This document shows positions 2,670-62,532 of a stretch of DNA of 64,000 bases, piece after piece (positions within the stretch are counted from its first letter, which is position 1; each line of letters begins with the position of its first letter). The notes beneath the pieces are model-generated. The model saw only the letters and a program-made list of their open reading frames with translations. It had not been told where the DNA came from and ran no database searches. Origin of the DNA: Planctomycetia bacterium (GTDB taxonomy: Bacteria; Planctomycetota; GCA-002687715). A program made the position numbers and the translations under genes. The stretch covers positions 80,123-144,122 of the forward strand of contig SXUL01000036.1 of NCBI GenBank assembly GCA_005790545.1. The letters are read 5' to 3'.

Positions 2670-4064
2670 ATGACGAGCTTCCCATCCTTCTCCGTGCGGG
2701 TCTTCGCCCTGCTCTTGCTCACACTTGGCGGCCTCGAAGCCCAGTGCGGCATGCAGCTCTACGCCCAACACTGCGCAGCCTGCCATGGTGAACGTGGCCG
2801 CGGCGACGGGCCCGCCGCCCGCTTCCTCGACCCCAAGCCGCGCGACTTCCAGAGCGGGCACTTCCGGTTTGTGAGCACGGACAACGGCGTGCCCTCCGAC
2901 ACGGACATCCTCGAAGCGATCTCCGCGGGACTGCCGGGGTCCGCCATGCTCGGGTTCACGCAACTCACTCCGCCTGAACGCATCCGCCTTGTGGACTATG
3001 TGCGCGTGCTCCGCCGCGCCGGAATCCGCGAGCGCCTCGCGGGCACCGGTCTTGAAGGAGATGCACTGGAAGCAGAGGTCTTCGCCCTCGACACGCCCGG
3101 GGCGCTGGTGCGCCCTGCGGCCGAAACCCCGGACACCATGGAGAGCCGCGCGCGCGGGGCTCTGCACTGGACGCGGCTGTGTGCGTCGTGCCACGGTGAC
3201 AATGGCCGGGGTGTGTTCGATCCCTTGCGCATCACCGCCGAGGGGCACCTCGTACAACCCCGGGATCTCACCCGTGGAGTGATGAAGAGCGGCCACGAAG
3301 CCGAGCGGCTGTGGCAACGGGTGCGCTGCGGCATTCCCGGCACCCCGATGCCGAAGCTCACGGCGAAGGAACTGGATGACGATGCCCTGTGGGATCTGCT
3401 GCACCATCTGCAGAGCCTCGTCCCCGCCGGGCGTCAGGCGCTGCACGACCCCTTGCGCTGGACCATCGGCGTGCCGCGCCTCGCAGGTGCGCTGCCCACC
3501 GATCCGGCGGACGAACGCTTCAACGGAGTGAGCGCCACTTGGATTGCACTCGCGCCCATGCAAGCGCACACGCCGAACGTCAACGGTGTGATGCTGCAGG
3601 CTGCCCACGACGGCGAGCACGTTGTGCTGCGTATCCAGTACGCCGACAGGACCTTCAACGCTGCCGGCGTGCCCGGTGCGCCGGACGGCGTTGCGGTGCG
3701 ACTCACGAGCGCAGCCCGTCCGCCCGTGCTGCCACTGCCCGGCATGCCGCTGCCCGTTGACCGCGCGCTCTGGCTGGCCGGCGCCAAGCCGGCTCCGGAT
3801 GATCCGATCTTCGAACATCTCGTGCCGCGTTTCGAAAACCCGGACAGCGTGTGCAAGTCGCCCATCGGACCAGAACACGTCGGCAAGGCTGCTTGGCGTG
3901 ATGGCCTGTGGACTGTGCTCATGCTCGTGAAACCTGAACGGGCCGGTCGTCTCAGTGTCGGTGGAACGATGCCGCTCAGCCTCGCGGTTTTCGATGGCGC
4001 GACGGCACGCGGCCCGCTGCCGGGAGCCTTCTCCCACTGGCAGACACTGCGTTTCCTGCCCTGA
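2670..4064 (+). CDS. diheme c-type cytochrome (two CXXCH motifs) with about 200 aa C-terminal non-heme domain
   Basis: In-frame ATG at 2670 gives signal-peptide-like N-terminus (MTSFPSFSVRVFALLLLTLGGLEA). Heme-binding motifs CAACHG and CASCHG are present. The upstream 167 codons of ORF 2169..4064 overlap the antisense gene 2079..2606 and lack a signal peptide. Confidence 0.8.
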   Translation: MTSFPSFSVRVFALLLLTLGGLEAQCGMQLYAQHCAACHGERGRGDGPAARFLDPKPRDFQSGHFRFVSTDNGVPSDTDILEAISAGLPGSAMLGFTQLTPPERIRLVDYVRVLRRAGIRERLAGTGLEGDALEAEVFALDTPGALVRPAAETPDTMESRARGALHWTRLCASCHGDNGRGVFDPLRITAEGHLVQPRDLTRGVMKSGHEAERLWQRVRCGIPGTPMPKLTAKELDDDALWDLLHHLQSLVPAGRQALHDPLRWTIGVPRLAGALPTDPADERFNGVSATWIALAPMQAHTPNVNGVMLQAAHDGEHVVLRIQYADRTFNAAGVPGAPDGVAVRLTSAARPPVLPLPGMPLPVDRALWLAGAKPAPDDPIFEHLVPRFENPDSVCKSPIGPEHVGKAAWRDGLWTVLMLVKPERAGRLSVGGTMPLSLAVFDGATARGPLPGAFSHWQTLRFLP

Positions 4065-5249
4065 TCAGCGCATCTTTGCGATACGGGAGGCGATCTCCCG
4101 CGCGATGACCATGGAGGCGCGCTGGTTCGGATGTCCGGTGCCGTTCACGAAGAGTGCGCCGGTATCCTCGCCTTCAGCAAGGCTCGCAACCAGCGCCGGC
4201 CCGAGATCCAGCACGCAATCCTCGTTGTCGAGCTCTTCGAGGATTGGCTTCCAAACGGTGGGCGTCCCGCTTCTGTAGCGCGCGATGTCATCCGACTGCG
4301 GGAGCAGCACGACGAGGGGCGCGCTGTCGGCTGCGCGCGAACTGTCGATGAACAGCCGCAGGAGCGCGGCCGTGACTTGGACCCCCTCGCCTCCGCGCTG
4401 CGTGAGTCGCAGAATCTGCTCATGACGCTCCCGATGTTCGCGCCGCGAGCGCATCCAGCGCAGCAGACGAAACGCATCCGTCCATGGCTCTGCGTGAAAG
4501 CCGGGACGGTACACCGCATCCAGCGCGCTCAGCGCGGAAGCATCGTAGTGACGGACAATTTCCGCGACCTTCGAAGGCGCCACACACGGCTGGTTCAAGA
4601 GGGCGAGGCTGCCGTCCGTCTCGAGGGCAAAGCGCGGTTTCGTCCAGGGCATGTCGGTCCAGTGGAGGTACGCGCTGCGCAGGATGTTCACATTGCGGAG
4701 CAAATCGTCGCGGCAAAGCGCAAGCACCGAGACCTTGGACTCAATGCTGGTACGGAGAGCGAGCGCGCGCAACAGGGCCTGATCCGTGCCATAGCCGGGC
4801 ACGCCCGCGTTGTGCACGCGCCAGTTGTCGCCGAGAGCGACACCCAGTTGTGCAGCCCAAGTGTCCTCGAAGCGGAGTTCATCGCCGTGGGTGAACGAGT
4901 CCCCTGCGAGGAGGACGGCCATTGCATCGGCGCGCGTTGTCGTGACCACGCTACCGGTGCGCAAGCCGCGCTCGTCGGCCTGATAGAGCCCGTCCACCGA
5001 ACGACCGGACGGTTTGATGGTCCAGCCAAGTGTCGCGTCAGGAATGATGTAGGCGTGCTCCTCCGGGGCCTTCCGCAGCAGTTCCTCGTGCTGCGTGGTC
5101 AAGCGCTCGAAGGGCAGCAGTTTGATGCCGAACAGCGTCGCATGGCCTTCAACATCACGGGTGAAAAGGCGCAGCGCGAGTTCGAGCACGGCCACGAAAA
5201 TCAGCATCCCGATCAGGATGCGCAACAGAATGCGCAGCAGGCGACTCAT
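4065..5249 (-). CDS. SGNH/GDSL-family hydrolase-like membrane-anchored protein
   Basis: Start at internal Met (MSRLLRILL...) gives an N-terminal TM helix. 'LLAGDSFTHG' block resembles the SGNH hydrolase block I (GDS). ATGA start/stop overlap with the upstream gene at 5246-5249. Confidence 0.6.
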   Translation of the reverse strand: MSRLLRILLRILIGMLIFVAVLELALRLFTRDVEGHATLFGIKLLPFERLTTQHEELLRKAPEEHAYIIPDATLGWTIKPSGRSVDGLYQADERGLRTGSVVTTTRADAMAVLLAGDSFTHGDELRFEDTWAAQLGVALGDNWRVHNAGVPGYGTDQALLRALALRTSIESKVSVLALCRDDLLRNVNILRSAYLHWTDMPWTKPRFALETDGSLALLNQPCVAPSKVAEIVRHYDASALSALDAVYRPGFHAEPWTDAFRLLRWMRSRREHRERHEQILRLTQRGGEGVQVTAALLRLFIDSSRAADSAPLVVLLPQSDDIARYRSGTPTVWKPILEELDNEDCVLDLGPALVASLAEGEDTGALFVNGTGHPNQRASMVIAREIASRIAKMR

Positions 5250-43370: not shown

Positions 43371-44171
43371 ATGGGCCTCCAGCTCGGCGGCCTCTTGAAC
43401 TCCATGCAATCGCTCCCCACGTGCCGACCGCTCATCCTCGGGCTCCTCGGTGGCATCGCCTCGGGAAAAAGCCTCGTCGCAGAGGTCTTCCGACGCCACG
43501 GAGCGCTGGTTCTCGATGCAGACAAGGGCGTGGCCGCTCTCTTCGAGGAACCGGCCATCAAGCAGTCACTGGCGGACCTCTTTGGCGCGACCGTGTTCGA
43601 TACCGCCGGCGGGGTCAACCGCCAGAGGCTCGCGGCCATCGTCTTTGCTCCGGACGGCAGAGCGCTGCGGAAGAGCCTCGAAGACCTGCTGCACCCTCGT
43701 GTTGAGCGGGCTCTGGTTGAGGCTCTCACGGCGGCTCTTGCAGCGTCGCCTGTCCCGGATGTCGTGCTCTTCGACGTGCCGCTGCTCGCCGAGAATCCGC
43801 GCCTGCTCCTCCTCTGTGAGCGGCTCATTTTTGTTGCCGCACCCGAAGAGGATCGCGAGCGTCGCTGCCGCGAAGTCCGCAACTGGAAGGCTGGCGAGCG
43901 AGCGCGCCGCGAACAACTGCAACTCCCTCTGCCGGAAAAACGGGCCCTCGCGCGTCACGTGATCGTGAACTCTGGTAGCGTCGCTGACATCGAAGAGGCG
44001 GCACGGGAACTCCACTCCGGAGTGCTGGCCGCGCACCGTTTGGCGGAGGAACTGGCCCGTCATGGCCCGAAGGCCCATGGCGGATTGGGACCAGAAGCCC
44101 GAGCACGCGATGGAGCACGGAGAGACCGAAGCGGAAGTGGAACAGACGGCGGAGGCGCGCCACAGCGCTGA
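43371..44171 (+). CDS. coaE: dephospho-CoA kinase with about 50-aa C-terminal extension overlapping rho
   Basis: P-loop 'ILGLLGGIASGKSLVAEVF'. 'LDADKGV...' and 'RLIFVAAPEEDRERRC...' match CoaE. The true start may be the second Met (43404). Confidence 0.8.
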   Translation: MGLQLGGLLNSMQSLPTCRPLILGLLGGIASGKSLVAEVFRRHGALVLDADKGVAALFEEPAIKQSLADLFGATVFDTAGGVNRQRLAAIVFAPDGRALRKSLEDLLHPRVERALVEALTAALAASPVPDVVLFDVPLLAENPRLLLLCERLIFVAAPEEDRERRCREVRNWKAGERARREQLQLPLPEKRALARHVIVNSGSVADIEEAARELHSGVLAAHRLAEELARHGPKAHGGLGPEARARDGARRDRSGSGTDGGGAPQR

Positions 44172-45471
44172 GGCCGCGTCACTGCGCCGCCACGCGGACT
44201 ATGACCGGGTGAAGGCCGCGCCTTCGGTACATGCGCGCCTGCATCAACTGGGCGAACGCGAGCTGAGAGAGGAAGCAAGAAGACTCGGTCTTCAGCCGGA
44301 ACCACGCGCGCCTCGCGAACAATGGGTGCAAGCCCTTGTCGCCCGTGAGCTCGCGGAAGAAGGGCTCCCTGTTGCGGACGGCATCATCGAAGTGTTGCCG
44401 CAGGGCTTCGGATTCCTCCGCAATCACGCGGTGGACTACATGCCCTCCAACGACGACATCTACGTGAGCCCCAGTCAGGTCCGACGCTTCGAGCTCCGGA
44501 CCGGGATGCACGTGGTCGGCGTGAAAAGAGCTGCAGAAGAAGGCGAACGTTTCACCGCTCTGCTCAGGATCGAAAGCGTGGACGGCACCGCGGCAGTGGA
44601 ATCGGGACCGCGCCCGCGCTTCGATGCGCTCACGCCCGTACATCCGCACCAGCGCCTCATTGTCGAACACGCAGCGGGCGCTCATGCGAGCAGGCTCATC
44701 GACATGTTCGCGCCGATCGGACTCGGCCAGCGCGCCCTCATCGTCGCACCGCCGCGTGCCGGCAAGACGCTGCTTCTGAAAGAGCTCGCCATCGGGCTCA
44801 AGGCCAACCAACCCTGGCTGCATCTCGTGATGCTGCTCGTGGATGAACGCCCCGAGGAAGTCACGGATCTGCGCCGCTCCGTTCCGGGTGAAGTCGTGAG
44901 CTCCACCTTTGACGCGACGCCGGAACGGCATTGTCATGTCGCACGCCTCGTGATCGAACGCGCACGTCGGCTCGTGGAACAGGGCCGTCATGTGGCCCTG
45001 CTGCTCGACTCCATCACGCGCCTTGCGCGTGCACACAACGCGGCCAGTCCGAATTCGGGACGCATTCTCTCGGGCGGCGTGGATGCAACCGCTCTGCAAA
45101 TGCCGAAGCGCTTCTTCGGTTCCGCCCGTGCCACCGAGGAAAAGGGTTCGCTCACGATGATCGCCACCGCGCTGACGGATACCGGCTCACGGATGGACGA
45201 AGTGATCTTCGAGGAATTCAAAGGCACCGGCAACTCCGAGATCGTGCTCGATCGCACCGCTGCCGAGAAACGGCTCTTCCCCGCGCTCGACATCCTGCGC
45301 ACGGGCACGCGCAAGGAAGACCTGCTCCTCGACCCGGAAGAAATGAAGCGCGTCACGGCGCTGCGCCGGGTCCTCGCCGGCCTGAAGCCCGATGAGGGCC
45401 TCGAACTCCTGCTGCAACGGCTGACGCGCACCCCCAACAACGCCGCCCTGCTGATGTCGATGGCGCTGTGA
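44062..45471 (+). CDS. rho: transcription termination factor Rho (extended N-terminus)
   Basis: 'GIIEVLPQGFGFLR', 'DIYVSPSQVRRFELRTGMHV', Walker A 'APPRAGKTLLLKELA', 'LVDERPEEVTDLRRSVPGEVVSSTFD', 'GSLTMIATALTDTGSRMDEVIFEEFKGTGNSEIVLDR'. These are essentially identical to the E. coli Rho motifs. Start may be an internal Met (about 44110) given the overlap with coaE. Confidence 0.92.
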   Translation: MARRPMADWDQKPEHAMEHGETEAEVEQTAEARHSAEAASLRRHADYDRVKAAPSVHARLHQLGERELREEARRLGLQPEPRAPREQWVQALVARELAEEGLPVADGIIEVLPQGFGFLRNHAVDYMPSNDDIYVSPSQVRRFELRTGMHVVGVKRAAEEGERFTALLRIESVDGTAAVESGPRPRFDALTPVHPHQRLIVEHAAGAHASRLIDMFAPIGLGQRALIVAPPRAGKTLLLKELAIGLKANQPWLHLVMLLVDERPEEVTDLRRSVPGEVVSSTFDATPERHCHVARLVIERARRLVEQGRHVALLLDSITRLARAHNAASPNSGRILSGGVDATALQMPKRFFGSARATEEKGSLTMIATALTDTGSRMDEVIFEEFKGTGNSEIVLDRTAAEKRLFPALDILRTGTRKEDLLLDPEEMKRVTALRRVLAGLKPDEGLELLLQRLTRTPNNAALLMSMAL

Positions 45472-52662: not shown

Positions 52663-53274
52663 TCACGCGCGGCGTTGAACCAGCACGGCGAAATCCGTGT
52701 CGTCTTCGGCCTCGAGGCGCTGCGGCGTGGCCCCTTCGAGTGCCAGTGACTCTCCGCTCTTGAGCTGCAGGCGCTTTCCTTTCACTTCCACCGCCAGCGC
52801 GCCGTGGTGCACCACGATGGTCAAGGCGTGCGCCACCCCGAATTCCGGCGCTACCGCGACCGAGCCACGGCGGCCCTCACCGAGGAGAAGCTCCGTCTGA
52901 CCTTGCTGCACGCCCCTGAAGTGGAATGCCCCGGCGCGCAGTTCGCGCGTCTGCTGCACGTTGGTCTCCGTGCGTTCTGCGAGGGACAGCAGACCGAAGG
53001 TGCTGATGCCGAGTCCCTCGGCGATGCGATCGAGGGTGTCGAGGTTGGGCTTGATGAGGTTGGTTTCGATGCGCGAGATGGGCGCATACGAAAGCCCGCA
53101 GGAGCGCGCGAATTTCTCGATGGTGAGGCCCTTTTGTTGGCGCAGCGTGCGGATGACGCTGAAGTCATAGCGTCGGCGGACCTCGTGGGCGCGCTGGTGC
53201 CTGGCGATGACCGAATTCGATTCTTCTGCGACGAGTTCGTCGCCCGTTTCTGAACGCGAAGACTGCGTGGCCAT
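52663..53274 (-). CDS. XRE-family HTH transcriptional regulator with C-terminal cupin domain
   Basis: HTH_3 'IRTLRQQKGLTIEKFARSCGLSYAPISRIETNLIKPNLDTLDRIAEGLGIS'. C-terminal beta-rich cupin-like segment. Start at Met 53274 preferred (MATQSSRSE...). Last gene of the minus-strand microcompartment cluster. Confidence 0.65.
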   Translation of the reverse strand: MATQSSRSETGDELVAEESNSVIARHQRAHEVRRRYDFSVIRTLRQQKGLTIEKFARSCGLSYAPISRIETNLIKPNLDTLDRIAEGLGISTFGLLSLAERTETNVQQTRELRAGAFHFRGVQQGQTELLLGEGRRGSVAVAPEFGVAHALTIVVHHGALAVEVKGKRLQLKSGESLALEGATPQRLEAEDDTDFAVLVQRRA

Positions 53275-53375
53275 GACGGGCCTCCCTCTTGAAGCGGCAG
53301 GCGCTGCCTCAACAGCCCTATCGGGTGTGGCCCGAACCCGTCTTGCGATCAACTCCGGTTCGGGAGGAGTATTCT

Positions 53376-54629
53376 TCAGTGATCGAGAACAACGATCACG
53401 GATTCGCCCACATCAGGGTTGCCCTCGGCCGCACGCAAATGCACCGCGCGGAGGGATTCGATGGCGCCGAGAATCTCGTCGGCCACCCGTTGTGCGGGAG
53501 GGAGCAAGAAGACTTCCCAGCCTTGTGGAGGCTGAGGACGCACTGCATTGGCAGTCCACTCGAGCTTGCCCCGACTGGCCGCGGCAAGCAGTGCCGTCTC
53601 CATCGTTTGCAGCGGCTCCGCGCGCTGAACGAGCAGCGCGCGCACAGCCTCGATCGCAGCGGGCCCTTCAGCCACATAGAGGCGCCGTGTCTCGCTGCCG
53701 CGTACTGCTCCCGGTTCGGAAACCGCGCGCTTCGCCACCAGTTGCGCCTTCGTGCTGGGGACATCGGCATCCAGCGACTCCACGCTGAGGCCACGACCGG
53801 GCTTGCCAGCGCCATCGATCACGGAGATAGCGGCGCGTGCGTCTGCAACGAACGACTCGAAGGCGCGCGCACCGGATGCCACCGCTGCGTTGCAACGTGC
53901 GAGTTCGCGCTCGGACAGCGTCCGCTCGGGCGTAGCTGGCTCTGGAATGCTCTCGGCCCGTGCACGCTCCTGGATGAGTCCCGCTTCGCAGGAAAAACGC
54001 ACACTCAGGCCGTCGTCCGTGGTTCGGCGCGGCAGCGTGAACGCGCGCGTGAGCATCGGCGCGCCAACCAGCGGAGCATTCTTGCGACGCAGGCCTGCGT
54101 GCGGTGCGCGCTTCTCGTCCGCTTCTTGATGGGCGTCCTGTTGCCGCGCGCCGTCAACACCAACTCCGCCTCCGGGGCTGTCCTCGGCAAGGCGGCCAAG
54201 GTCTTTGCTCCTCCCCTCTGTCGTGAGCGTCTCTCCCTGACCGGCTTCCGACCCCTCGGCAGTCACGCTCGGCGCAGGATCACCTGTCCATTCCGAGGGG
54301 CGTGACAGGAGCTCCACCACCCAACTTGTGAGTCCGACCACTGCGACGAGCACCGCAGCCCTCCGCAGCAGCGGGAAATAAGGGAAACGGCGACGCGCCG
54401 GGCGCAGCGCTCCCTGAAGGCGTCGAACCACGTCATCCGCAACAGGCGGGATGGCAGCCCTCCTGAGCTCCGCGCGCTGGCGCGCAAAGGCGCTGCTTGC
54501 GCTCCGACACGCCGCGCAATCGGTCAGATGCTGCTCGAGACGTGCCGCGTCCGCGGCATCCAACCGGCCATCGAGCGCAGCGCTCGAGAGCTCGCGGAAG
54601 GGCTCGCACGGATGCTCTTTCATGCGCAC
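53376..54629 (-). CDS. membrane-spanning anti-sigma factor (zf-HC2 type) with large C-terminal extracytoplasmic domain
   Basis: N-terminal 'HLTDCAACR' zinc-finger anti-sigma motif, one TM helix (AAVLVAVVGLTSWVVELL), then about 290 aa periplasmic region. Overlaps the ECF sigma gene stop by a few nt (translational coupling). Confidence 0.65.
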   Translation of the reverse strand: MRMKEHPCEPFRELSSAALDGRLDAADAARLEQHLTDCAACRSASSAFARQRAELRRAAIPPVADDVVRRLQGALRPARRRFPYFPLLRRAAVLVAVVGLTSWVVELLSRPSEWTGDPAPSVTAEGSEAGQGETLTTEGRSKDLGRLAEDSPGGGVGVDGARQQDAHQEADEKRAPHAGLRRKNAPLVGAPMLTRAFTLPRRTTDDGLSVRFSCEAGLIQERARAESIPEPATPERTLSERELARCNAAVASGARAFESFVADARAAISVIDGAGKPGRGLSVESLDADVPSTKAQLVAKRAVSEPGAVRGSETRRLYVAEGPAAIEAVRALLVQRAEPLQTMETALLAAASRGKLEWTANAVRPQPPQGWEVFLLPPAQRVADEILGAIESLRAVHLRAAEGNPDVGESVIVVLDH

Positions 54630-55189
54630 TCTCCCGAGAGCAGTTGGCGCAATCTCTCGCGCGCGCGAAAGAGCCGCGAGCGCACTGTGCCGGGCGGGAT
54701 TTCGAGAATGAGTGCGATGTCCTCGTAGCTCCGGTCATCAATGTCGCGCAGGATGAGAATGGCGCGCAGTTCCTCGGGCAACTCTCGGAGTGCGTTCAAG
54801 GCGCGGCCGTGCTCCTCTTGCAACATGAGCGATGCACCGGCGTCCTCCGTCACAGCGGGTTCGGGATGATCCGTGGGACCGTCGCCGAGAGTTTGGGTCA
54901 CATTCGGGCGGGCCTTGCGCGCGCGCGCCGCGGACACCACTGTGTTGTGCCCAATACGGCAGAGCCACGTCGAAAAACTGCTCTCGGAGGTGAAGCTCGC
55001 GAGCCCCCTGAAGGCCTTGAGCCAGGTCTCCTGACAGAGGTCGAGAGCGAGTTCGGGGTCGCGGGTCATGCGCAGAATGAAGGCGTGCAAGCGATCGGCA
55101 TGGAGTTTCACCAAGGCCGTGAATGCCTCCTCCGACCCCTGCTGCGCGGCCTTCAGGAGTCCCGCTTCAGAGTGGATTGCGTCACCCAA
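54620..55189 (-). CDS. RNA polymerase sigma-70 factor, ECF subfamily
   Basis: 189 aa. Region 2 'FTALVKLHADRLHAFILRMTRDPELALDLCQETWLKAFRGLASF' and region 4 'LPEELRAILILRDIDDRSYEDIALILEIPPGTVRSRLFRARERL'. Confidence 0.85.
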   Translation of the reverse strand: MGDAIHSEAGLLKAAQQGSEEAFTALVKLHADRLHAFILRMTRDPELALDLCQETWLKAFRGLASFTSESSFSTWLCRIGHNTVVSAARARKARPNVTQTLGDGPTDHPEPAVTEDAGASLMLQEEHGRALNALRELPEELRAILILRDIDDRSYEDIALILEIPPGTVRSRLFRARERLRQLLSGECA

Positions 55190-55228: not shown

Positions 55229-55504
55229 TCAGCAGCGCACGAGGTCGATACGGTTGGGGCGCGTCTTTGCCACCAGCCATGTCGTGGATGAACCGCCTTC
55301 CCGGTCGGGCCAGCGCAACGCCTTCAGCCCCTTCTTGAAGCGCGCTTCTCCGGGCTGAATGGAAACTTCCGTCTCTTCTTCGCGAATAACCGCGTAGCGG
55401 AAGCGGATGGAGTCATCATCCGTGGGGCCGAACCAGGTGAAGTTCGCCGCGGCCGAATCTGACTTCGGATCAGGACCGAGATGGGGCTTGAAGCCTGCGT
55501 TCAT
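55229..55504 (-). CDS. hypothetical small protein (91 aa) inside the microcompartment gene cluster
   Basis: ORF with high third-position GC consistent with local coding. Sits between the last shell gene and the ECF sigma gene on the same strand with 21 and 39 bp spacers. No similarity recognised. Confidence 0.35.
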   Translation of the reverse strand: MNAGFKPHLGPDPKSDSAAANFTWFGPTDDDSIRFRYAVIREEETEVSIQPGEARFKKGLKALRWPDREGGSSTTWLVAKTRPNRIDLVRC

Positions 55505-55525: not shown

Positions 55526-56128
55526 TCAGCCGCTCACGAATTCCGAGAAGGGGTTGACCGGATCCTCGAAGGCCTGACGCAGGCGCTGATCGGGATTCGG
55601 AATCACCACGGAGTGCCGATGATAGCCACGCTCGCGCGCAAGGCGCGTGCCTGAATCGACGGCCGCTTCCACATCACTTTGTGCACCAGCAAGAGTCACG
55701 AAGGCGTTGCCGCCGAGCCCCATGCCAAGCCGAATTTCGAGGAGACGTACGGCGGCGCATTTGGCCGCGCCGTCCGCTGCAAGCAAAGCGGCGCAGAGAC
55801 TGGTCGTCTCGATGATGCCCACCGATTCGCGCACCGGTTCCGCCTTGCGTCCGCGGAGGACTCGCACGAGATCCGGGTGAGGCTGCGCGAGAAAAAGTGA
55901 ATCGCGGAGTTCATCACGCGCCGCCGCGGCGCCGGCACCGAGAGCCTCACGGACGGCCTCCACACTGCCGCTGAAGAGCGCGATGAAACGACCGGGCGTG
56001 ACCGGCCGCAAGGCCAGCACCTCCACGGTCGCCTCTTTCAGCACTGCATCCGCGGCGAGAAGCCCTCGGGCAACGCTCTCCCACTCGAGCATGCCGAGGG
56101 GCTTCGTATGCGGACGCACGCGCTCCAC
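55526..56128 (-). CDS. bacterial microcompartment shell protein, tandem BMC-domain (BMC-T), PduT-like
   Basis: Two BMC (PF00936-type) domains: 'LGMLEWESVARGLLAADAVLKEATVEVLALRPVTPGRFIALFSGSVEAVREAL' and 'VGIIETTSLCAALLAADGAAKCAAVRLLEIRLGMGLGGNAFVTLAGAQSDVEAAV'. Cys in the second domain at a position comparable to the PduT Fe-S ligand. Confidence 0.8.
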   Translation of the reverse strand: MERVRPHTKPLGMLEWESVARGLLAADAVLKEATVEVLALRPVTPGRFIALFSGSVEAVREALGAGAAAARDELRDSLFLAQPHPDLVRVLRGRKAEPVRESVGIIETTSLCAALLAADGAAKCAAVRLLEIRLGMGLGGNAFVTLAGAQSDVEAAVDSGTRLARERGYHRHSVVIPNPDQRLRQAFEDPVNPFSEFVSG

Positions 56129-56131
56129 AGA

Positions 56132-57121
56132 TCACCTGCGGCGGCGAGGCCGCTTCAGAGAACCGGCACCGGTATCGCCGCTCGAAGGTGCATCCCAGAC
56201 GATTTCGAAGGACTCGTCCGCGCGGGTACTGGCCGCTGGGGCCTCAGAGCGCGGAGCTGGAGTCGATGCAGGCGCCGGAGCAGGCGCTGGTTCCGGCAGG
56301 GTGCGCGCTGGTTCATCCCACACGGGGATGAAGTCAGGTTCTGGCGGCGCTTCGGGAGCCGCACTCGGAGCGGATGCCGCGACATTCGGTTCACGTGCAT
56401 CCTCGCCACGCGGTGCAGGACCACGCTCGCTGCCGAAGCGGTCGCGGCCACGGCCACGGCGTCCACGGCGGTCACCACGCTCCTCACGCGGTCCACCCTC
56501 GCCGCGTTCTTCGCGCGGCCCATTCACGCCACGCTCTTCACGGGGTCCGCGGTCTTCGCGCGGCCCGCGGTCTCCACGCTCCTCACGGGGAGCACGGTCT
56601 GCGCGCGGCCCGTTATCGCCGCGCCCTTCGCGCGCCCCGCGGTCGCCACGTTCCTCACGAGGCCCACGCTCTTCGCGCGGACCGCGATCATCGCGCTCGC
56701 GCCCTGCATCGCGGCCGTCTCTCGGTCCGCGTCCACCACGCTCGCCTTCGGGCTCGCGTTGAGAGCCTTCCTGCCCGAAGCCTCTTTCGGCTGCCCGTGG
56801 CGCCACCGCGATGCCGCGACGTCCAGCAGGCATCTCGGGCACTTCGTCTCCGCCATCCTCCGCCGGTGTCATGAAGCAACTCACCACGCCTACAGCGGCG
56901 CCAGCGACCGGCAGGTCCTTCGGCAGATCGAAACGATCGCCAAGGGGTGCGAGGGCCACGAGCACCAGATCTCCGGCACCTGCACCCGCGCGGTCGACAA
57001 CCACGAGTGCGCCGGTCCACTCCACCTCATGCTCGGGTTCAACGAGCAGGAATCTCAGGCCTTCGAAGGCCGGGTGGACCTTCGCCAATTCGACTTCACA
57101 CTGCACTGTTCCGATGAACAC
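56132..57121 (-). CDS. bacterial microcompartment vertex protein (BMC-P, EutN/CcmL/PduN fold) fused to about 240-aa low-complexity repeat tail
   Basis: Residues 1-85 'MFIGTVQCEVELAKVHPAFEGLRFLLVEPE..GALVVVDRAGAGAGDLVLVALAPLGDR...AAVGVVSCF' match EutN/CcmL. This is followed by about 10 nonamer repeats (GPREERGDR and variants), two 'F-x-VWD-x-P' motifs and a poly-Arg C-terminus. Confidence 0.75.
   Translation of the reverse strand: MFIGTVQCEVELAKVHPAFEGLRFLLVEPEHEVEWTGALVVVDRAGAGAGDLVLVALAPLGDRFDLPKDLPVAGAAVGVVSCFMTPAEDGGDEVPEMPAGRRGIAVAPRAAERGFGQEGSQREPEGERGGRGPRDGRDAGRERDDRGPREERGPREERGDRGAREGRGDNGPRADRAPREERGDRGPREDRGPREERGVNGPREERGEGGPREERGDRRGRRGRGRDRFGSERGPAPRGEDAREPNVAASAPSAAPEAPPEPDFIPVWDEPARTLPEPAPAPAPASTPAPRSEAPAASTRADESFEIVWDAPSSGDTGAGSLKRPRRRR
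56390..56760 (-). repeat. imperfect 27-nt tandem repeat array (about 10-12 units) inside the BMC-P gene, encoding GPREERGDR nonamers
   Basis: Plus-strand units recur with 27-nt period, e.g. 'cacgctcctcacgcggtccaccctcgc', 'cacgctcttcacggggtccgcggtctt', 'cacgctcctcacggggagcacggtctg', 'cacgttcctcacgaggcccacgctctt'. Confidence 0.7.
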
Positions 57122-57137
57122 GTTCGTCCTTCCTGAA

Positions 57138-57767
57138 TCACCGATTCTCGCGGCCCGAGATGGACTCCAGAGCCACAGTCACTGCCTTCACCGCCTCCCG
57201 GATCGCGGATTCCGTTCCGCCGAGATAGAGCCTTCCGAATGCACCGGAGGACTGCATCTCGATCAATTTGACGGGAGCGGCCTTTTCCGCCTCGTTGGCG
57301 GCAATGGTTGCGTAGGCGGCGGGGTGAACCTCCAGAATGTAGAGGGTCTCGCCGCCGAGGATCATATCGCCGAAACGGATGCGGTTGATGAGCTGGGCCT
57401 GGTCGGGGTCGAGGTTGGTGATGATCTGCGAACTCATCACGCGCGGGCGCAGCCGATCCTCTTCCTTGAGGCCGAGGCTCGCGAGCATGCGCGCTCCTGC
57501 CTCGCGCACCTCAGCCTGTGAGTCCGAGTGAAGCTCCAGAAGCCCGAAGGCCCGCTCCACCACCTGCAAACCGGGACGCACATCATTGCTCTTGAGCGCG
57601 ATATCGGTGAGCCGGTTGATCGCGATGCCCGGAGCCACTTCGACAAAAAGCGAGGCCTGACCTTGCACCGGCAGGAATCCTCGCGCGGTGGTTCCCACGT
57701 AGGCCGCGAACGCGGGCTGCATGCTGTCGAGGAAGGTGTACGCCCTGAGTTCGATGCCCGCGGACAT
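57138..57767 (-). CDS. bacterial microcompartment shell protein, permuted tandem BMC-domain (BMC-T, PduB/EutL-like)
   Basis: 209 aa with two circularly permuted BMC units. 'APGIAINRLTDIALKSNDVRPGLQVVERAFGLLELHSDSQAEVREAGARML' parallels PduB '..GVLMADTALKSANVEVV......ILVISGDSGAVRQAV..'. The second unit is 'GETLYILEVHPAAYATIAANEAEKAAPVKLIEMQSSGAFGRLYLGGTESAIREAVKAV'. Confidence 0.65.
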   Translation of the reverse strand: MSAGIELRAYTFLDSMQPAFAAYVGTTARGFLPVQGQASLFVEVAPGIAINRLTDIALKSNDVRPGLQVVERAFGLLELHSDSQAEVREAGARMLASLGLKEEDRLRPRVMSSQIITNLDPDQAQLINRIRFGDMILGGETLYILEVHPAAYATIAANEAEKAAPVKLIEMQSSGAFGRLYLGGTESAIREAVKAVTVALESISGRENR

Positions 57768-57781
57768 GGGCAGTGGAGCTC

Positions 57782-58075
57782 TCAGACTTCGCCGTCGCCT
57801 TCAGGCTGCGGCAGGATGGACTCGACCTGTTCGTGCGGACGCGGAATGACGTGCACGCTCACAAGCTCTCCGACGCGACGCGCGGCAGCGGCGCCGGCAT
57901 CGGTGGCAGCTTTTACTGCACCGACTTCGCCGCGCACCATCACGGTGACGTAGCCGCCACCGATCTTCTCCTTGCCGATGAGGGTCACCTGTGCGGCCTT
58001 CACCATGGCGTCGGCAGCCTCGATGGAACCCACGAGTCCGCGGGTCTCGATCATTCCCAGTGCGATCTTGCTCAT
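57782..58075 (-). CDS. bacterial microcompartment shell protein, single BMC domain (BMC-H, PduA/EutM/CcmK-like)
   Basis: '[81 protein letters not shown]' is near-consensus PF00936. Confidence 0.92.
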
Positions 58076-58120: not shown

Positions 58121-59635
58121 CTATCCTCCCCGCTCCGCGCCAGCCGACAAGCCCCGCGGCCCGTTTCCCGCCCGGCGTTCCAAAGCCGCGCGGATGATGG
58201 CTTCCAATTCAGCCGGAGAATGGTGTTCGCCGGGCATGCGCGCCAGGGGGTCCCCAAGCAGGCTCGGGCGTTCCAAGGCAGCCGCTTTCTCGGGCTGGGG
58301 CCAGGGTGAACCGGCTACGGAGGATGCAGGCGTTGCCAACTGGGGCCAATCCGAGAGCGTGTCCCCCTTCCTCCACGCCGCATTCGCCCGCGCCAGGCGC
58401 TTCACGTTGATGAGGTGCTGAGGCCCCACGTTGTCGGAAGTGATATTGCCTCCAAAGGAGCCACAGCCGAGAGTCATCGAAGGAAAGAGCCCGCTGGCTG
58501 CCCCCACGGCACCGAGGGATGTCGGCGCATTCAGGATGATGCGATTCACCGGCTTCTCGAGGGCGAAGGCCCGGATGATGGCCTCATCGCAGCAGTGCAG
58601 GCCGAGCGTGTGCCCTCGTCCGCCGAGCGCAAGAATATCGATGCAGAGCCGGCAGCCCGCCTCGTGCCCATCCACGGCATAGAAGGCAAGCACCGGCGCC
58701 AACTTCTCATACGAGAGTGGATGGCCCGGCCCGAGCCCCGCTGCGCGCGCAACCAACACGGTGGTGGCCTCGGGCACGCGGAAGCCGGCCATGGCGGCAA
58801 TGCGCGCCGCGGACTGCCCGACGACATCGGGATTGGTGCCGCCGTCACGCGCGAGGATGCGCTCGAGCAGAGGCGTTTCTTCAGCCGAGAGCAGATGCAC
58901 ACCACGCGCCACGAGTTCGCGCAGCAACGCTTCTTCTACCGGCCGGTCGCAAACGATGGCCTGCTCGGAAGAGCAGATGGTGGAGTTGTCGAAGGTCTGG
59001 CTGGTGACGATGGCGCGCGCAGTCTCCGCGATATCGGCAGAACGGTCGACATACACCGGCACATTTCCGGGGCCCACGCCAAAGGCCGGTTTGCCGGATG
59101 AATACGCCGCACGCACCAGGCCCGAGCCGCCGGTCGCGAGAATGAGATTCACTTCGCGGTCGTGCATCAAAGCCTGAGTGCCTTCGAGAGCCACATGCTC
59201 CATGCAGAGCGCCCAATCCTCGGGAGCCCCGGCAGCGACGGCAGCATCGTGCGCCACACGAATAGCCTCAGCGATGCACTGCTTCGCGCGCGGATGCGGC
59301 GAGGCCACCATGGCATTGCGCGACTTCAGGCAGCAGATGGCCTTGTAGAGCGCCGTACTCGTGGGATTCGTCACGGGGATGATGGCCGCCACCACTCCGA
59401 AGGGTGCGGCGATTTCCATCACGCCGCGTTCCTTGTCCTCGCTCAGCACTCCGCACGTGCGCATCCCGGCGATGGCTTGCCAGAGTCCTCGCGTCGCAAA
59501 GCGGTTCTTCACCGTCTTGCTCTCGACCCGCCCCATGCGCGTTTCCTCGACAGCCAGCGCGGCGAGACGCGCACTGGCTGCGTGCCCCGCTTCCACCACT
59601 GCGGCCGCGGCGCGATCGATGGCCTCCTGATCCAT
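58121..59635 (-). CDS. CoA-acylating aldehyde dehydrogenase (EutE/PduP family) with C-terminal linker plus probable encapsulation peptide
   Basis: Start at Met 59635 ([18 protein letters not shown]...) preferred. The ATG at 59830 would overlap the divergent peptidase gene. Catalytic Cys in '[14 protein letters not shown]'. NAD/CoA-binding '[12 protein letters not shown]', '[13 protein letters not shown]'. C-terminal Pro/Ser-rich linker then amphipathic helix '[18 protein letters not shown]'. Confidence 0.9.
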
Positions 59636-59823
59636 GTGCTGGAGGCGGAGGAAGGCGCGGCGTGCGCGAGCCGCCCGGTCCCGGGCATCCGCGATGGACA
59701 GGAGATCCTTGTGTCCGTTTTCCGCCACGCGTCGATCCGCCGCGAGTCTACCAGTGCAACGCTTTCCGGCGCGCGAGGGCCGGGCTATCGTCGGCGCCGC
59801 ATGTTGCTCATGGAGATCCGCCG
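59636..59823. promoter_or_regulatory. divergent intergenic region between the microcompartment operon (minus) and the M16 peptidase gene (plus); candidate promoters
   Basis: 188-bp non-coding gap between two divergently oriented start codons. On the minus strand it contains 'GGAAAGCGTTGCACTGGTAGACTCG' (GGAAA-N16-GACTC), loosely resembling an ECF-type -35/-10. Speculative. Confidence 0.3.
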
Positions 59824-62532
59824 ATGCCACGCCTCGTCCTCGCCCTCCTTCTCCTCCACGGAGTTGTCATGACCCAGTCGTCGCGCCCCGCGCTCGCCAT
59901 CGAGCGGTACGTGCTTCCGAACGGCCTCACCGTCATCCTCCATGAAGATCACGCGCTGCCCATCGCCGCGGTGAACATCTGGTACCGCGTCGGCAGCAAG
60001 GACGAGGTTGCGAAGCGCTCGGGCTTTGCACACCTGTTTGAGCACCTCATGTTCATGGGCACCGAGCGCGTGCCGCAAGGCCGCTTCGACGAGATCATGG
60101 AAGCGGGCGGTGGCAGCAACAACGCCACTACTTCCCAGGACCGGACGAACTACTTTGAATCCGGCCCCGCGGAGATGCTCCCGACGTTGCTCTGGCTCGA
60201 AGCAGATCGCATGGAGGATCTCGGCCGCTGCATCACACAGGAGAAACTCGACCTGCAACGGGACGTGGTGAAGAATGAACGCCGCCAGTCCTACGAGAAT
60301 CGACCTTATGCGCGCGCATGGCTTGAATTGCCCGCGATGATGTATCCCGCGGGGCATCCCTATGACCACTCGGTCATCGGCAGCCATGAGGATCTCGAAG
60401 CCGCGAGCGTCGAAGACGTGCGCGACTTCTTTGCCACGCACTACGTGCCCGCCAACGCGGCCTTGGTGGTCGCCGGCGATTTCGATCCTGTCGCAACGAA
60501 GGAGCTCATCGCGAAACTCTTCGGCACCCTCGCTGTGGGCAGAAAGCCGACCGCGGCGCCGATCCCGGTGCCGGTGCAACTCGATCGCATCATCCGCCGC
60601 AGCATGGAGGACAAGGTTCCGGCCGCACGGGTCAGCATGAGCTTCCACTCGCCGCGTCATTTCGCACCCGGCGACGCGGAAGCCGATCTCGTCGCCAGCC
60701 TGCTCGGAGAAGGCGCCGCCTCGCGGCTTGAGCGCGTTCTCGTGCAAGAACGCCGCCTCGCGCAGAGCGTCTCGGCGAGCCAGCAAAGTGGCTTGCTCTC
60801 GTCCATGTTCATGGTCTCAGCCTTGGCCATGCCTGGCGTGAGTGCCGCCGACCTCGAAGCCGCCATGGACACCGTCTTGAAGGATGCGCTGAAGGATGGC
60901 TTCAGTGTCGCGGACGTGGAGCGTGCTGTTTCACGCGCAGAAGCCGCATATGCCGCGCAGATGCAGGAACTCCTGACGCGCGCCGACCTCCTGAACCAGT
61001 ACGAGATGGCCTTCGGCAATCCGGATGGGTTCGAGCGCGACCTTGCGCGCTACCGCACCGCCACTGTCGAGAGCGTGAATGCCACCCTCCGCAGCATCAT
61101 CACTCCCGGTCAGCGTGCGGTGATGACTGTCCTGCCTGAAGGCACAACGGCAGAGGCGGTCCGGAGCGCGCGGGACACGCGGCCTGGCGATCTCGCCACG
61201 AAGGCATTCGTGCCGGCCGTTCCGGAGTGCTTCAAGGTTGGCGGTATGGAAGTCTGGCTGCTCGAGCGCCATCAGGCGCCGCTTGTTTCGCTGGCGCTCA
61301 GCCTGCCGCTCGGCAGCAGCGCTGACGCTCCCACACGCGCAGGTCTCACGGCACTCACGTGTTCGCTCATGCACGAAGGGGTGCGCGGCAATGATGCTGC
61401 CGACTTCGCCGTGGCTCTCGAGCGCCTTGGCGGTGCCGTGTCCGTGAAGGCCGGCAAGCGCCAGTCCGTGGCGGGAATGCTCGCGCTTTCGCGCAATGTC
61501 GATGCCACCTTCGACCTCCTCGCGGATCTCCTGCTGCGCCCGACGCTCGGCGAGCAGGATTTCGAGCGCGTGAAGGCCCAGCAACTCGCCGGCATCGAGC
61601 AGCGTGCCAAAGACCCCGCGACGATCGCGACCCTGGTGGCGGCACGACGCCTCGCGGAGGAACGCGGACGCAGAGCTGACCCCGCGAACGGCTATCTCAC
61701 GACCGTGAGCGGTCTCACGCACGCCATGGTTCGTGAACGCCACGCCAATGTCGTCGCGGCCCTCGGCGGCGCACGCATCGTGGTCTGCGGTGACATCACC
61801 AGGGATGCACTCGAAGCGACTCTGAAGCGCCAGTTCGGCGCCTTGCCCGTTGTCGCAACGCCGGCACGCGAGAAGGCCGCTGACCCCTTCGCAACGCGCA
61901 AGCTCTACATCGTCGATCGGCCCGATGCGCCGCAAACAGTGATCCGCTTCCAGCACGACGCCCCGGCGCTGGGTTCAGCATTCGATGCGCCGCTCCAACT
62001 CGCCAACACGGTCTTCGGTGGCAGCTTCACCAGCAGGCTTTCACAGAACCTCCGCGAGAAGAATGGCTTCACCTACGGGGCCGGTTCACGCGTCTCCCAG
62101 GATGCCGATGAAGGCGTGTTCGTGGCCACCTCCAACGTGCGCACGGAAGTCACAGGCCCCGCCATCCGCGAGTTCCTCGCGGAATTCCAGCGTCTCTCCA
62201 AGAGAGACTTCACGGTGGAAGAACTCGCGAAAGCGAAAGCCGCCGAACGCACGGACTTGGTACGGACCTTTGAGGAAGTCAGCGCGACCTCGGGGGCGCT
62301 GCTCCTCCCGTTGGTCGCCGGACGCGGCCCCGGCCATCTCGGTGAATACGCCGCGCTTGCGGCAGCCACGGCTCTCGATGCCGTGAATGCTGCAGCGGAT
62401 GTGCACATGCAAGGCTTCCCCGGCGTTCTGGTGCTCGTCGGCGATGCCAAGACCATCCTCGCGCAACTCGAAGGCATCGACCTTCCCGTGCCCGAGTGGT
62501 GCGACGCGGACGGCAACCTCATCAAGCGCTGA
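59824..62532 (+). CDS. M16-family zinc metallopeptidase (pitrilysin/insulinase-like), tandem M16 + M16_C units, secreted
   Basis: Start at ATG 59824 (MPRLVLALLLLHGVV.. signal). Inverted zinc motif 'HLFEHLMFMG' (HxxEH) plus downstream Glu; a second inactive M16 pair. 902 aa. The upstream 140 codons of the ORF track overlap the aldehyde dehydrogenase gene in antisense. Confidence 0.85.
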   Translation: MPRLVLALLLLHGVVMTQSSRPALAIERYVLPNGLTVILHEDHALPIAAVNIWYRVGSKDEVAKRSGFAHLFEHLMFMGTERVPQGRFDEIMEAGGGSNNATTSQDRTNYFESGPAEMLPTLLWLEADRMEDLGRCITQEKLDLQRDVVKNERRQSYENRPYARAWLELPAMMYPAGHPYDHSVIGSHEDLEAASVEDVRDFFATHYVPANAALVVAGDFDPVATKELIAKLFGTLAVGRKPTAAPIPVPVQLDRIIRRSMEDKVPAARVSMSFHSPRHFAPGDAEADLVASLLGEGAASRLERVLVQERRLAQSVSASQQSGLLSSMFMVSALAMPGVSAADLEAAMDTVLKDALKDGFSVADVERAVSRAEAAYAAQMQELLTRADLLNQYEMAFGNPDGFERDLARYRTATVESVNATLRSIITPGQRAVMTVLPEGTTAEAVRSARDTRPGDLATKAFVPAVPECFKVGGMEVWLLERHQAPLVSLALSLPLGSSADAPTRAGLTALTCSLMHEGVRGNDAADFAVALERLGGAVSVKAGKRQSVAGMLALSRNVDATFDLLADLLLRPTLGEQDFERVKAQQLAGIEQRAKDPATIATLVAARRLAEERGRRADPANGYLTTVSGLTHAMVRERHANVVAALGGARIVVCGDITRDALEATLKRQFGALPVVATPAREKAADPFATRKLYIVDRPDAPQTVIRFQHDAPALGSAFDAPLQLANTVFGGSFTSRLSQNLREKNGFTYGAGSRVSQDADEGVFVATSNVRTEVTGPAIREFLAEFQRLSKRDFTVEELAKAKAAERTDLVRTFEEVSATSGALLLPLVAGRGPGHLGEYAALAAATALDAVNAAADVHMQGFPGVLVLVGDAKTILAQLEGIDLPVPEWCDADGNLIKR

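Follow-up and report, generated by a model that had tools for sequence, protein, structure and literature searches.

Planctomycetota BMC-P proteins with long charged tails and an invariant C-terminal Trp-acidic motif: candidate exterior tethers on microcompartment vertices

The BMC-P proteins of bacterial microcompartments (BMCs), among them EutN, CcmL, CsoS4, PduN and the structurally solved protein of Haliangium ochraceum (HO BMC-P; PDB 5V74), are single-domain proteins of about 80-100 amino acids (aa) that are encoded amid genes for BMC-H and BMC-T shell proteins and presumably cap the shell vertices. They have been treated as minimal, passive vertex plugs, and what BMC-P paralogs do is among the unsettled questions of the field (PMC8217296, PMC11585597). 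Here, we describe an open reading frame (ORF; 56132..57121, minus strand) in a stretch of 64,000 nucleotides from a Planctomycetia bacterium (contig SXUL01000036.1, assembly GCA_005790545.1), hereafter referred to as the window, that encodes a BMC-P domain followed by a long C-terminal tail. The protein belongs to a discrete clade in which tails that are otherwise unalignable share the same Trp-acidic motif near their end. We consider, with a probability of about 40%, that the tail makes this protein a vertex-fused exterior adaptor, the Trp-acidic and polybasic end of which docks outside the compartment and thereby anchors, spaces or partitions the organelles. Coordinates refer to the window, and the ORF, its operon and the adjoining regulatory genes named below all lie on the minus strand.

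Two kinds of protein that associate with carboxysomes are the closest described counterparts of such a tail. In the McdB adaptors, an invariant C-terminal Trp is necessary for association with the carboxysome and, in the alpha type, whose C-terminal consensus is R(V/I)WPD, it is also sufficient (PMC11321042). The protein CipG, which recruits GlgC to the carboxysome surface, requires invariant tryptophans (WxxW[K/R]) for its localisation there (PMC13506006). Extensions of shell proteins themselves are described in the parts of the 2021 BMC catalog that were covered only for BMC-H, where they reach up to 200 aa and include an 80-aa Pro/charged tail in the BUF2 type; within this coverage, neither the type descriptions nor the main text and supplements mention an extension of a BMC-P, and the portion of the BMC-P tree file that was searched held no entry matching this protein by locus tag or length. 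Our literature searches likewise brought up no long-tailed BMC-P, and a tether of this kind has not previously been described for the vertex-protein class.

The ORF in the window is a member of the BMC-P family both by its domain and by its context. It starts with a GTG codon, which has a Shine-Dalgarno-like sequence, read from the DNA, 5 nt on its 5' side (AGGAAGGA, 57127..57134), and it ends with a stop codon at 56132-56134; the ORF is kept in orthologs. A EutN/CcmL domain (PF03319; the vertex-pentamer domain) had been claimed for aa 1-85 (56867..57121) in the original prediction, and this is borne out by the Pfam model EutN_CcmL, which matched aa 1-79 with 32.5 bits (E 1.2e-7) against a gathering cut-off of 25, as well as by a profile built on the N-terminal 90 residues, for which the best solved homologue was HO BMC-P (E 3.7e-7), with the alignment reaching residue 85 of 96. 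With the canonical proteins it shares the PF03319 domain, the cores D-x-V-G-A-x-x-G-D and P-[IV]-x-[GA]-A-V-V-G and a location amid BMC-H and BMC-T genes, but at 329 aa it exceeds their size range, the domain being followed by 244 extra residues.

A first round of homology searching gave four proteins with a EutN domain, 220-355 aa long, each with a charged repetitive tail and a shared signature at the C-terminus, and a scan of one genome per species gave six loci with complete ORFs of 303-507 aa, all in Planctomycetota metagenome-assembled genomes (MAGs). A query with the small gene downstream retrieved closer relatives of the window protein, L009/L010 (302 aa), L011 (299 aa) and L013, which a word-based search had missed because the low-complexity tail hid them. 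When 1.84 billion cluster representatives were searched exhaustively with HMMER, using a profile of the N-terminal domain, the proteins stood out as a clade of fourteen representatives with scores of 86-171 bits, whereas ordinary BMC-P proteins of 80-100 aa scored at most 46 bits. This sharp gap sets the domain apart from canonical BMC-P as a separate, deeply diverged clade. The source records of the clade that name an organism are all Planctomycetota MAGs. A tail of 118-422 aa is present in each of the 16 full-length clade sequences, drawn from Planctomycetota MAGs or metagenomes, on which the comparisons below are based. The tailed BMC-P family is rare, with about 15 of the cluster representatives, phylogenetically narrow and clearly under selection.

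It had been suggested that EutN-domain proteins longer than 200 aa should be sought in other genomes, and the clade members, at 203-507 aa, provide them. The fusion within a single ORF is likewise genuine, the same architecture being found in all 16 full-length members and in a distant syntenic ortholog. The opposite situation, in which the EutN domain of homologous loci always stands alone, was not seen, as every full-length clade member is tailed. Nor was a bona fide stand-alone version present among the clade entries, in which four of the five short entries are contig-end fragments or a chimera and the fifth, P0008, which ends at the domain boundary, was not checked. These entries include P0012 (locus L006, a contig-end fragment), P0017 (an L008-like fragment) and P0042, which is without its N-terminus. 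A protein of 130 aa with a short helical tail, P0007 (L015), was considered as a tail-less or encapsulation-peptide type of variant and rejected as the product of a chimeric contig, since on this contig of 813 bp and 1.4x coverage the GC fraction changes from 0.70 to 0.45 at the very point at which the tail would begin.

Two of the loci call for separate comment. In L013 (about 3470..4670) the ORF is intact but broken by a 100-N scaffold gap within its AAEPRGER repeats and was missed by gene callers; metagenome annotations probably miss many repeat tails of this kind. The record of L005 (CAMARR010000006.1) bears the title of a Candidatus Kuenenia stuttgartiensis MAG, yet the contig has 60.6% GC and shares its synteny with the remaining high-GC loci from Planctomycetota, and the record is probably mis-binned or mislabelled.

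Across the full-length tails, the fraction of charged residues ranged from 0.38 to 0.55 and the net charge per residue from -0.03 to +0.09, with a hydrophobic content of 4-10% and a hydropathy well under the Uversky boundary; kappa was low in the clade members with long repeats. The first 20 residues of the tail carry a net charge of -1 to -8 in most members, with a TTPAEDGEDE-like stretch directly after the domain, and the last 10 residues carry a net charge of +5 to +8 in 16/16. The motif [I/V/L]VW[D/E] is equally invariant (16/16) and lies 21-38 residues from the end, usually with an aromatic or aliphatic residue two positions before it and often with Pro, Gly or Ser after it. The spacer from VWD to RRRR consists of 10-15 Gly, Ser, Thr, Pro or Asp residues and contains no hydrophobic stretch. 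That this motif is in-frame and kept in orthologs whose tails are otherwise unalignable places it beyond chance.

The repeat unit between these ends differs in almost every lineage: GPREER in the window, GNEQRPDR in P0001, AAEPRGER in L013, ERPMRD in L004, PREERPRRDDRPM in P0004, KAAPA in P0010 and PKPSTKA in P0013. An Arg/Gly-rich cluster is usual but not universal, several tails being K/A/P-rich or S/K/P-rich instead. The GPREER repeats and the RG character, which the original prediction described in the tail, turn out to be lineage-specific filler and not what the clade conserves; other members carry different units in their place. The same pattern is seen at short range between the window protein and L009, which are 96% identical in the BMC-P domain and 93% identical over the last 30 residues and differ by 27 gap columns in the repeat region, equivalent to a copy-number change of about three nonamer lengths.

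A distant ortholog extends the comparison beyond these members. P0027 (locus L014, 8001..8543) is encoded in the same operon and in the same MreC-PBP2-RodA / RecG synteny, and its tail of 95 aa has a KKKAKKR cluster and the sequence DRIWGD eleven residues from the end, followed by an acidic terminus. As P0027 keeps DRIWGD without a polybasic tip, the Trp-acidic motif is older and more general than the tip. A regular-expression search for [IVL]VW[DE] with a basic C-terminus in all ORFs of the window and of the orthologous loci returned no genes besides the tailed BMC-P, and a profile of the C-terminal 45 aa gave no match at E<=10 among 5.8 billion proteins, the motif being too short for a database of that size.

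In one subclade (L002, L004, L005, L007 and P0042) the tail also holds a conserved mid-tail amphipathic helix that resembles an encapsulation peptide (PAVPEHVRAIIDIAPG, PALPSHIRDLMETARP, LAVPRHIRSLMEEASS), the forms of which include PAVPEHVRAIIDIA or PRHIRSLMEEA. In the same subclade, 13 additional residues, PKIEGIDIAGQTSL, separate the Trp motif from the basic end.

The tail of the window protein (aa 86-329, 244 aa) contains 51 Lys/Arg against 53 Asp/Glu residues, which gives a net charge of about 0, together with 38 Gly, 34 Pro and 30 Ala and only 7% hydrophobic residues. Its mean hydropathy, at 0.32, is much lower than the 0.42 of the Uversky boundary, and its kappa is 0.13. The combination of charge balance, low hydrophobicity, sub-boundary hydropathy and low kappa indicates that the tail is very probably a well-mixed, strongly charged, disordered polyampholyte. 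The charge-balanced, Gly/Pro-rich and likely disordered tail that had been described is in this way confirmed at the level of sequence prediction.

From the domain outwards, the tail begins with an acidic proximal linker (PAEDGGDEVPE, aa 86-96, 56834..56866), an acidic base of the kind kept in most members, and continues into a polyampholyte tandem-repeat region (aa 131-215, 56477..56731). Tandem Repeats Finder (TRF) detected repeat periods of 18, 45 and 72 nt in the tail DNA, with scores of 153-199, and a regular-expression count gave nine [GA]PR[EDA][EDG]R hexamer cores at variable spacing within aa 132-215. The repeats are thus real in the DNA, but the description of about ten GPREERGDR-type nonamers gives way to nine hexamer cores. 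An Arg/Gly-rich basic cluster follows (GDRRGRRGRGRDR, aa 216-228, 56438..56476), and comparable R/RG clusters occur in most members. The RG/RGG-like character ascribed to the tail holds in so far as there are 20 RG dipeptides; RGG occurs once, and RG character is confined to particular lineages. Beyond the cluster lie the proximal Trp motif DFIPVWDEP (aa 263-271, 56309..56335), the distal Trp-acidic motif SFEIVWDAP (aa 304-312, 56186..56212), whose V-W-[D/E] core is invariant in the clade, a Gly/Ser/Thr-rich spacer from the Trp motif to the basic tip (aa 313-322, 56156..56185) and the polybasic C-terminus KRPRRRR (aa 323-329, 56135..56155), for which the clade consensus is K-x-K/R-x-P-R-R-R-R. 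DFIPVWDEP, SFEIVWDAP and KRPRRRR are all located as the original prediction claimed. Its duplicated F-x-VWD-x-P motif is present here in both copies, but only the distal copy is universal; the proximal one is a lineage-specific duplication, found in the window, L009, L011, L013, P0001 and P0002 and so limited to the subclade of the window protein.

The tailed BMC-P gene lies in an operon of the order aldehyde dehydrogenase, BMC-H, CcmP-like BMC-T, tailed BMC-P, PduT-like BMC-T and small PilZ-fold protein, co-directional and tightly packed, with 3-45 nt between genes. The arrangement of the shell genes recurs in 9 orthologous loci, and the operon order holds in every locus with enough sequence to show it. 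The first gene (58121..59830) encodes an EutE-type acylating aldehyde dehydrogenase (TIGR02518, 538 bits) with a C-terminal amphipathic helix resembling an encapsulation peptide. Its called ORF is 569 aa, but orthologs are 522-551 aa long, and translation probably begins at the GTG at 59728 (V35), for a length of 535 aa, equal to that in L009. The second gene encodes a hexamer-forming BMC-H shell protein (97 aa, 57782..58075), which is canonical, with 133.5 bits to EutM and 120.6 bits to CsoS1. The double-stacking BMC-T (209 aa, 57138..57767) scored 298.7 bits on the NCBIfam CcmP model, and its orthologs contain the Pfam domain CsoS1D_N. This score, against a cut-off of 340 on an equivalog model for beta-carboxysome CcmP, makes it unusually CcmP-like for a protein outside the carboxysome, in a metabolosome of heterotroph type. 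Downstream of the tailed gene are the tandem-domain PduT-like BMC-T (200 aa, 55526..56128; TIGR02526, 114 bits) and a protein of 91 aa (91-100 aa in orthologs; 55229..55504) with a PilZ-like six-stranded beta-barrel fold, in which canonical cyclic di-GMP motifs were absent. The PilZ-fold protein had been put forward as a possible binder of the tail motif; it is a possible but not a necessary partner, since its gene is absent from the distant L014 operon, where the Trp motif persists.

An extracytoplasmic function (ECF) sigma factor (54620..55189) and a zf-HC2 anti-sigma factor (53376..54629) recur as a pair next to the operon in orthologous loci, often after the shell genes, and a regulator with an XRE-type helix-turn-helix (HTH) and a cupin domain (52663..53352; the Cupin_2 match is sub-threshold in the window copy) is also regularly nearby. 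These three may regulate the shell operon. A scan of the operon for promoters and terminators gave nothing above chance. The operon matches no locus type in the type descriptions covered from the 2021 BMC catalog, the Planctomycetes-specific MIC3 and FRAG5 included, and represents an uncatalogued locus among the catalog types compared. With a profile of canonical and clade BMC-P proteins, the 64-kb window and each orthologous locus were seen to contain a single BMC-P domain. Unless there is a distantly encoded paralog, the vertices must therefore be formed by the tailed protein.

Taken together in one mechanism, the BMC-P domain would cap the vertices of a small aldehyde-dehydrogenase metabolosome, and the five tails of each pentamer, about 60 in an icosahedral shell, would reach into the cytoplasm. 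The tail would serve as a spacer whose length can be adjusted, a near-neutral polyampholyte that evolves fast; for a tail of about 220 residues, a polymer-scaling estimate gives an end-to-end distance of the order of 10-15 nm. Its end may form a bipartite docking peptide, consisting of a beta-strand-like phi-x-[IV]-V-W-[DE] segment, the Gly/Ser spacer of 10-15 residues and the polybasic tip. The most likely target would be polyanionic, with DNA, RNA and polyphosphate as candidates and the nucleoid as an example; the nucleoid could be bound directly by the protamine/SPKK-like x-P-R-R-R-R tip together with the RG cluster, or a ParA-type ATPase could mediate the contact. In either form the tail would position the organelle or recruit a peripheral partner, doing in cis what McdB-type adaptors do in trans. 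The likeness of the Trp motif, together with the disordered, charged and length-variable character of McdB and its basic region, is what leads us to read the tail as an adaptor of the McdB/CipG class. A displayed tether with short linear motifs, as first proposed from the sequence, fits the pattern of conservation. A more specific form of the idea, in which the vertex carries a self-contained, McdB-like positioning or anchoring module that ties the 12 vertices to the nucleoid or a ParA gradient, to polyphosphate or to other compartments, is less likely than not.

The placement of the tails was originally given as exterior or interior, and of the two the exterior is favoured. A C-terminal Strep-II tag on HO BMC-P allows a resin to capture capped, closed shells (PMC6056538; terminus: PMC10853475, PMC11346464). 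As the alignment with that protein reaches residue 85 of 96, the tail begins at what is in HO BMC-P a short exposed C-terminus, and because the C-terminal tag of this closest solved homologue is accessible on closed shells, we infer that the tails are probably cytosolic.

Several points weigh against the exterior-adaptor reading. The orientation derives from homology to HO BMC-P and not from a structure of the protein itself, an AlphaFold2 model of the full-length monomer having given a pLDDT (predicted local distance difference test score) of 44, with the BMC-P domain also poor on its alignment of 5 sequences, and being uninformative on orientation or disorder. The mid-tail helix of one subclade (PAVPEHVRAIIDIA) would suit a luminal role. 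A motif for docking to the shell looks redundant on a protein that is already built into the shell, and the apparent likeness to McdB is confined to 4-5 residues. P0027 has no polybasic tip and ends in an acidic terminus, so that polyanion binding would not be universal. Finally, a search for the deviant Walker-A motif of ParA/McdA-type ATPases gave none in the window or the orthologous loci.

The alternative that survives best, although unlikely, is self-association of shells, in which the Trp motif would bind the exterior of the BMC-H or of the CcmP-like trimer, in the same or in a neighbouring shell. The tail could in this way hold scarce pentamers at the shell surface, ready for vertex capping, nucleate hexamers around the pentamer or cross-link compartments by contact of basic tip and acidic base. 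The carboxysome precedent fits such docking most directly, since McdB and CipG need their invariant Trp for localisation to the carboxysome, on its outer face, and the canonical nature of the BMC-H here, as seen in its scores to CsoS1 and EutM, agrees with it. Pentamers are under-occupied in shells (PMC6056538, PMC6971018), the acidic base is found in most clade members and the basic tip in all 16, and no additional partner gene would be required, which suits a compact operon. On the other hand, a spacer of 120-420 aa is far longer than a staple needs, and the absence of the basic tip in P0027 does not favour contact between tip and base.

An inward orientation, with the tails acting as a luminal scaffold that gathers the aldehyde dehydrogenase or another signature enzyme in the manner of CsoS2, CcmM or encapsulation peptides, appears improbable. 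Consistent with it are the amphipathic mid-tail helix of the one subclade, the helical C-terminal extensions of 40-50 aa in other BMC-P clades (P0050, P0072) and the standing of disordered scaffolds, as with CsoS2, as an established principle of BMC assembly. However, in the closest solved homologue the C-terminus can be reached from outside capped shells (PMC6056538, PMC10853475), the aldehyde dehydrogenase comes with a C-terminal encapsulation peptide of its own, the tail has neither [IV][TS]G repeats of the CsoS2 type nor the accompanying high isoelectric point, and the distal motif is not an amphipathic helix.

Still less probable is a passive entropic or electrostatic brush that has no specific partner and spaces or solubilises the compartments, or tunes the size of the shell. 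Repeat sequence and length do evolve freely in the clade, with only the bulk charge balance and the low hydrophobicity kept, as a brush would allow, but the invariance of V-W-[DE] at a fixed distance from the conserved basic terminus, across tails that cannot otherwise be aligned, points to a specific binding peptide. A frameshift or misassembly fusing a normal BMC-P to a separate ORF is practically excluded because, although repeats assemble poorly (as the gap in L013 and the chimeric contig of P0007 illustrate), in-frame tails with the same architecture and end motif recur in 16 independent full-length sequences from differing samples and assemblers, in the very frame that is conserved at the protein level.

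With the tailed clade, a class of proteins held to be passive plugs gains a disordered and probably functional tether. If the exterior-adaptor reading is true, the vertices would be attachment points that tie shell architecture to positioning, clustering or peripheral recruitment in a BMC other than the carboxysome. If the vertex does carry a self-contained positioning module, this would be the first metabolosome with a built-in device for inheritance or clustering, and nature would offer a model for engineered shells that display 60 flexible tethers. C-terminal fusions of 120-420 residues to BMC-P are apparently tolerated in nature, which is of use for surface display on synthetic shells. The peptide phi-x-IVWD ... 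KRPRRRR also bears on the emerging idea that Trp motifs are general signals for docking on the outer shell, as in McdB and CipG.

Several known classes of repetitive or terminal sequence were compared with the tail and set aside. A collagen-like assignment was rejected, as the NCBIfam Scl/Lcl models scored 21-24 bits against cut-offs of 325-500; the Gly spacing in GPREERGDR is 6 and then 3, and not every third residue. A PEP-CTERM or LPXTG sorting signal was rejected on the lack of a hydrophobic segment between VWD and RRRR, and an encapsulation peptide on the form of the Trp motifs, which are phi-x-phi-V-W-D with flanking Pro/Gly and not amphipathic helices, and on their being carried by a shell protein. 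Two Rho termination factors (P0005, P0006) have Arg/Asp/Gly/Pro-rich N-terminal insertions with near-identical DRGPRE/DRAPRE repeats but share no domain and no Trp motif with the tailed proteins, and were rejected as relatives in favour of compositional convergence. A putative Rho-like ORF in the window itself (44062..45471, by synteny with L003) has no DRGPRE-type segment.

CsoS2 and CcmM are, as is the tail, long, repetitive and disordered BMC proteins that act through short repeated motifs, but they exist as proteins in their own right in the lumen, where they bind Rubisco and the inside of the shell, whereas the tail is net-neutral, fused to the shell and probably exterior. Both are basic, CsoS2 strongly so, and the repeats of CsoS2 are of the form [IV][TS]G. 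A CsoS2-type scaffold was rejected for the tail on its net charge of about 0 and the absence of [IV][TS]G repeats. The extensions of BMC-H proteins (EutK, PduK and H_lightcyan of BUF2, with its 80-aa tail) are extra C-terminal segments on the cytosolic face, as is proposed here, and that of H_lightcyan is Pro/charged-rich like the present tail. They sit on hexamers, in hundreds per shell, whereas the tail described here marks only the 12 vertices and ends in a Trp motif and a polybasic tip.

The basic region of McdB lies at its N-terminus and its Trp motif at the very C-terminus, whereas in the tailed BMC-P the VWD lies 21-38 aa before the end and a basic cluster forms the terminus. McdB is a free-standing protein encoded with the ParA-type McdA, and here the module is fused in-frame to a shell protein, with no McdA-like gene nearby in the window and orthologous loci. 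The gene for CipG adjoins ccmP (PMC13506006), and the tailed BMC-P is likewise encoded directly downstream of a CcmP-like gene; CipG itself is a folded pentapeptide-repeat protein with its Trp residues in N-terminal helices and has no sequence relationship to the tail. The likeness to McdB goes further: in both, a Trp that never varies is part of a short [VI]-W-acidic motif towards the C-terminus ([IV]-V-W-[DE]-x-[PGS] in the clade, R-I-W-G-D in P0027), and both are charged, largely disordered and variable in length with a basic cluster elsewhere, McdB acting outside the BMC shell (PMC11321042). With two features in agreement and two that differ, the tail would appear to work like the McdB-type adaptors while standing apart from them as a module built into the shell vertex.

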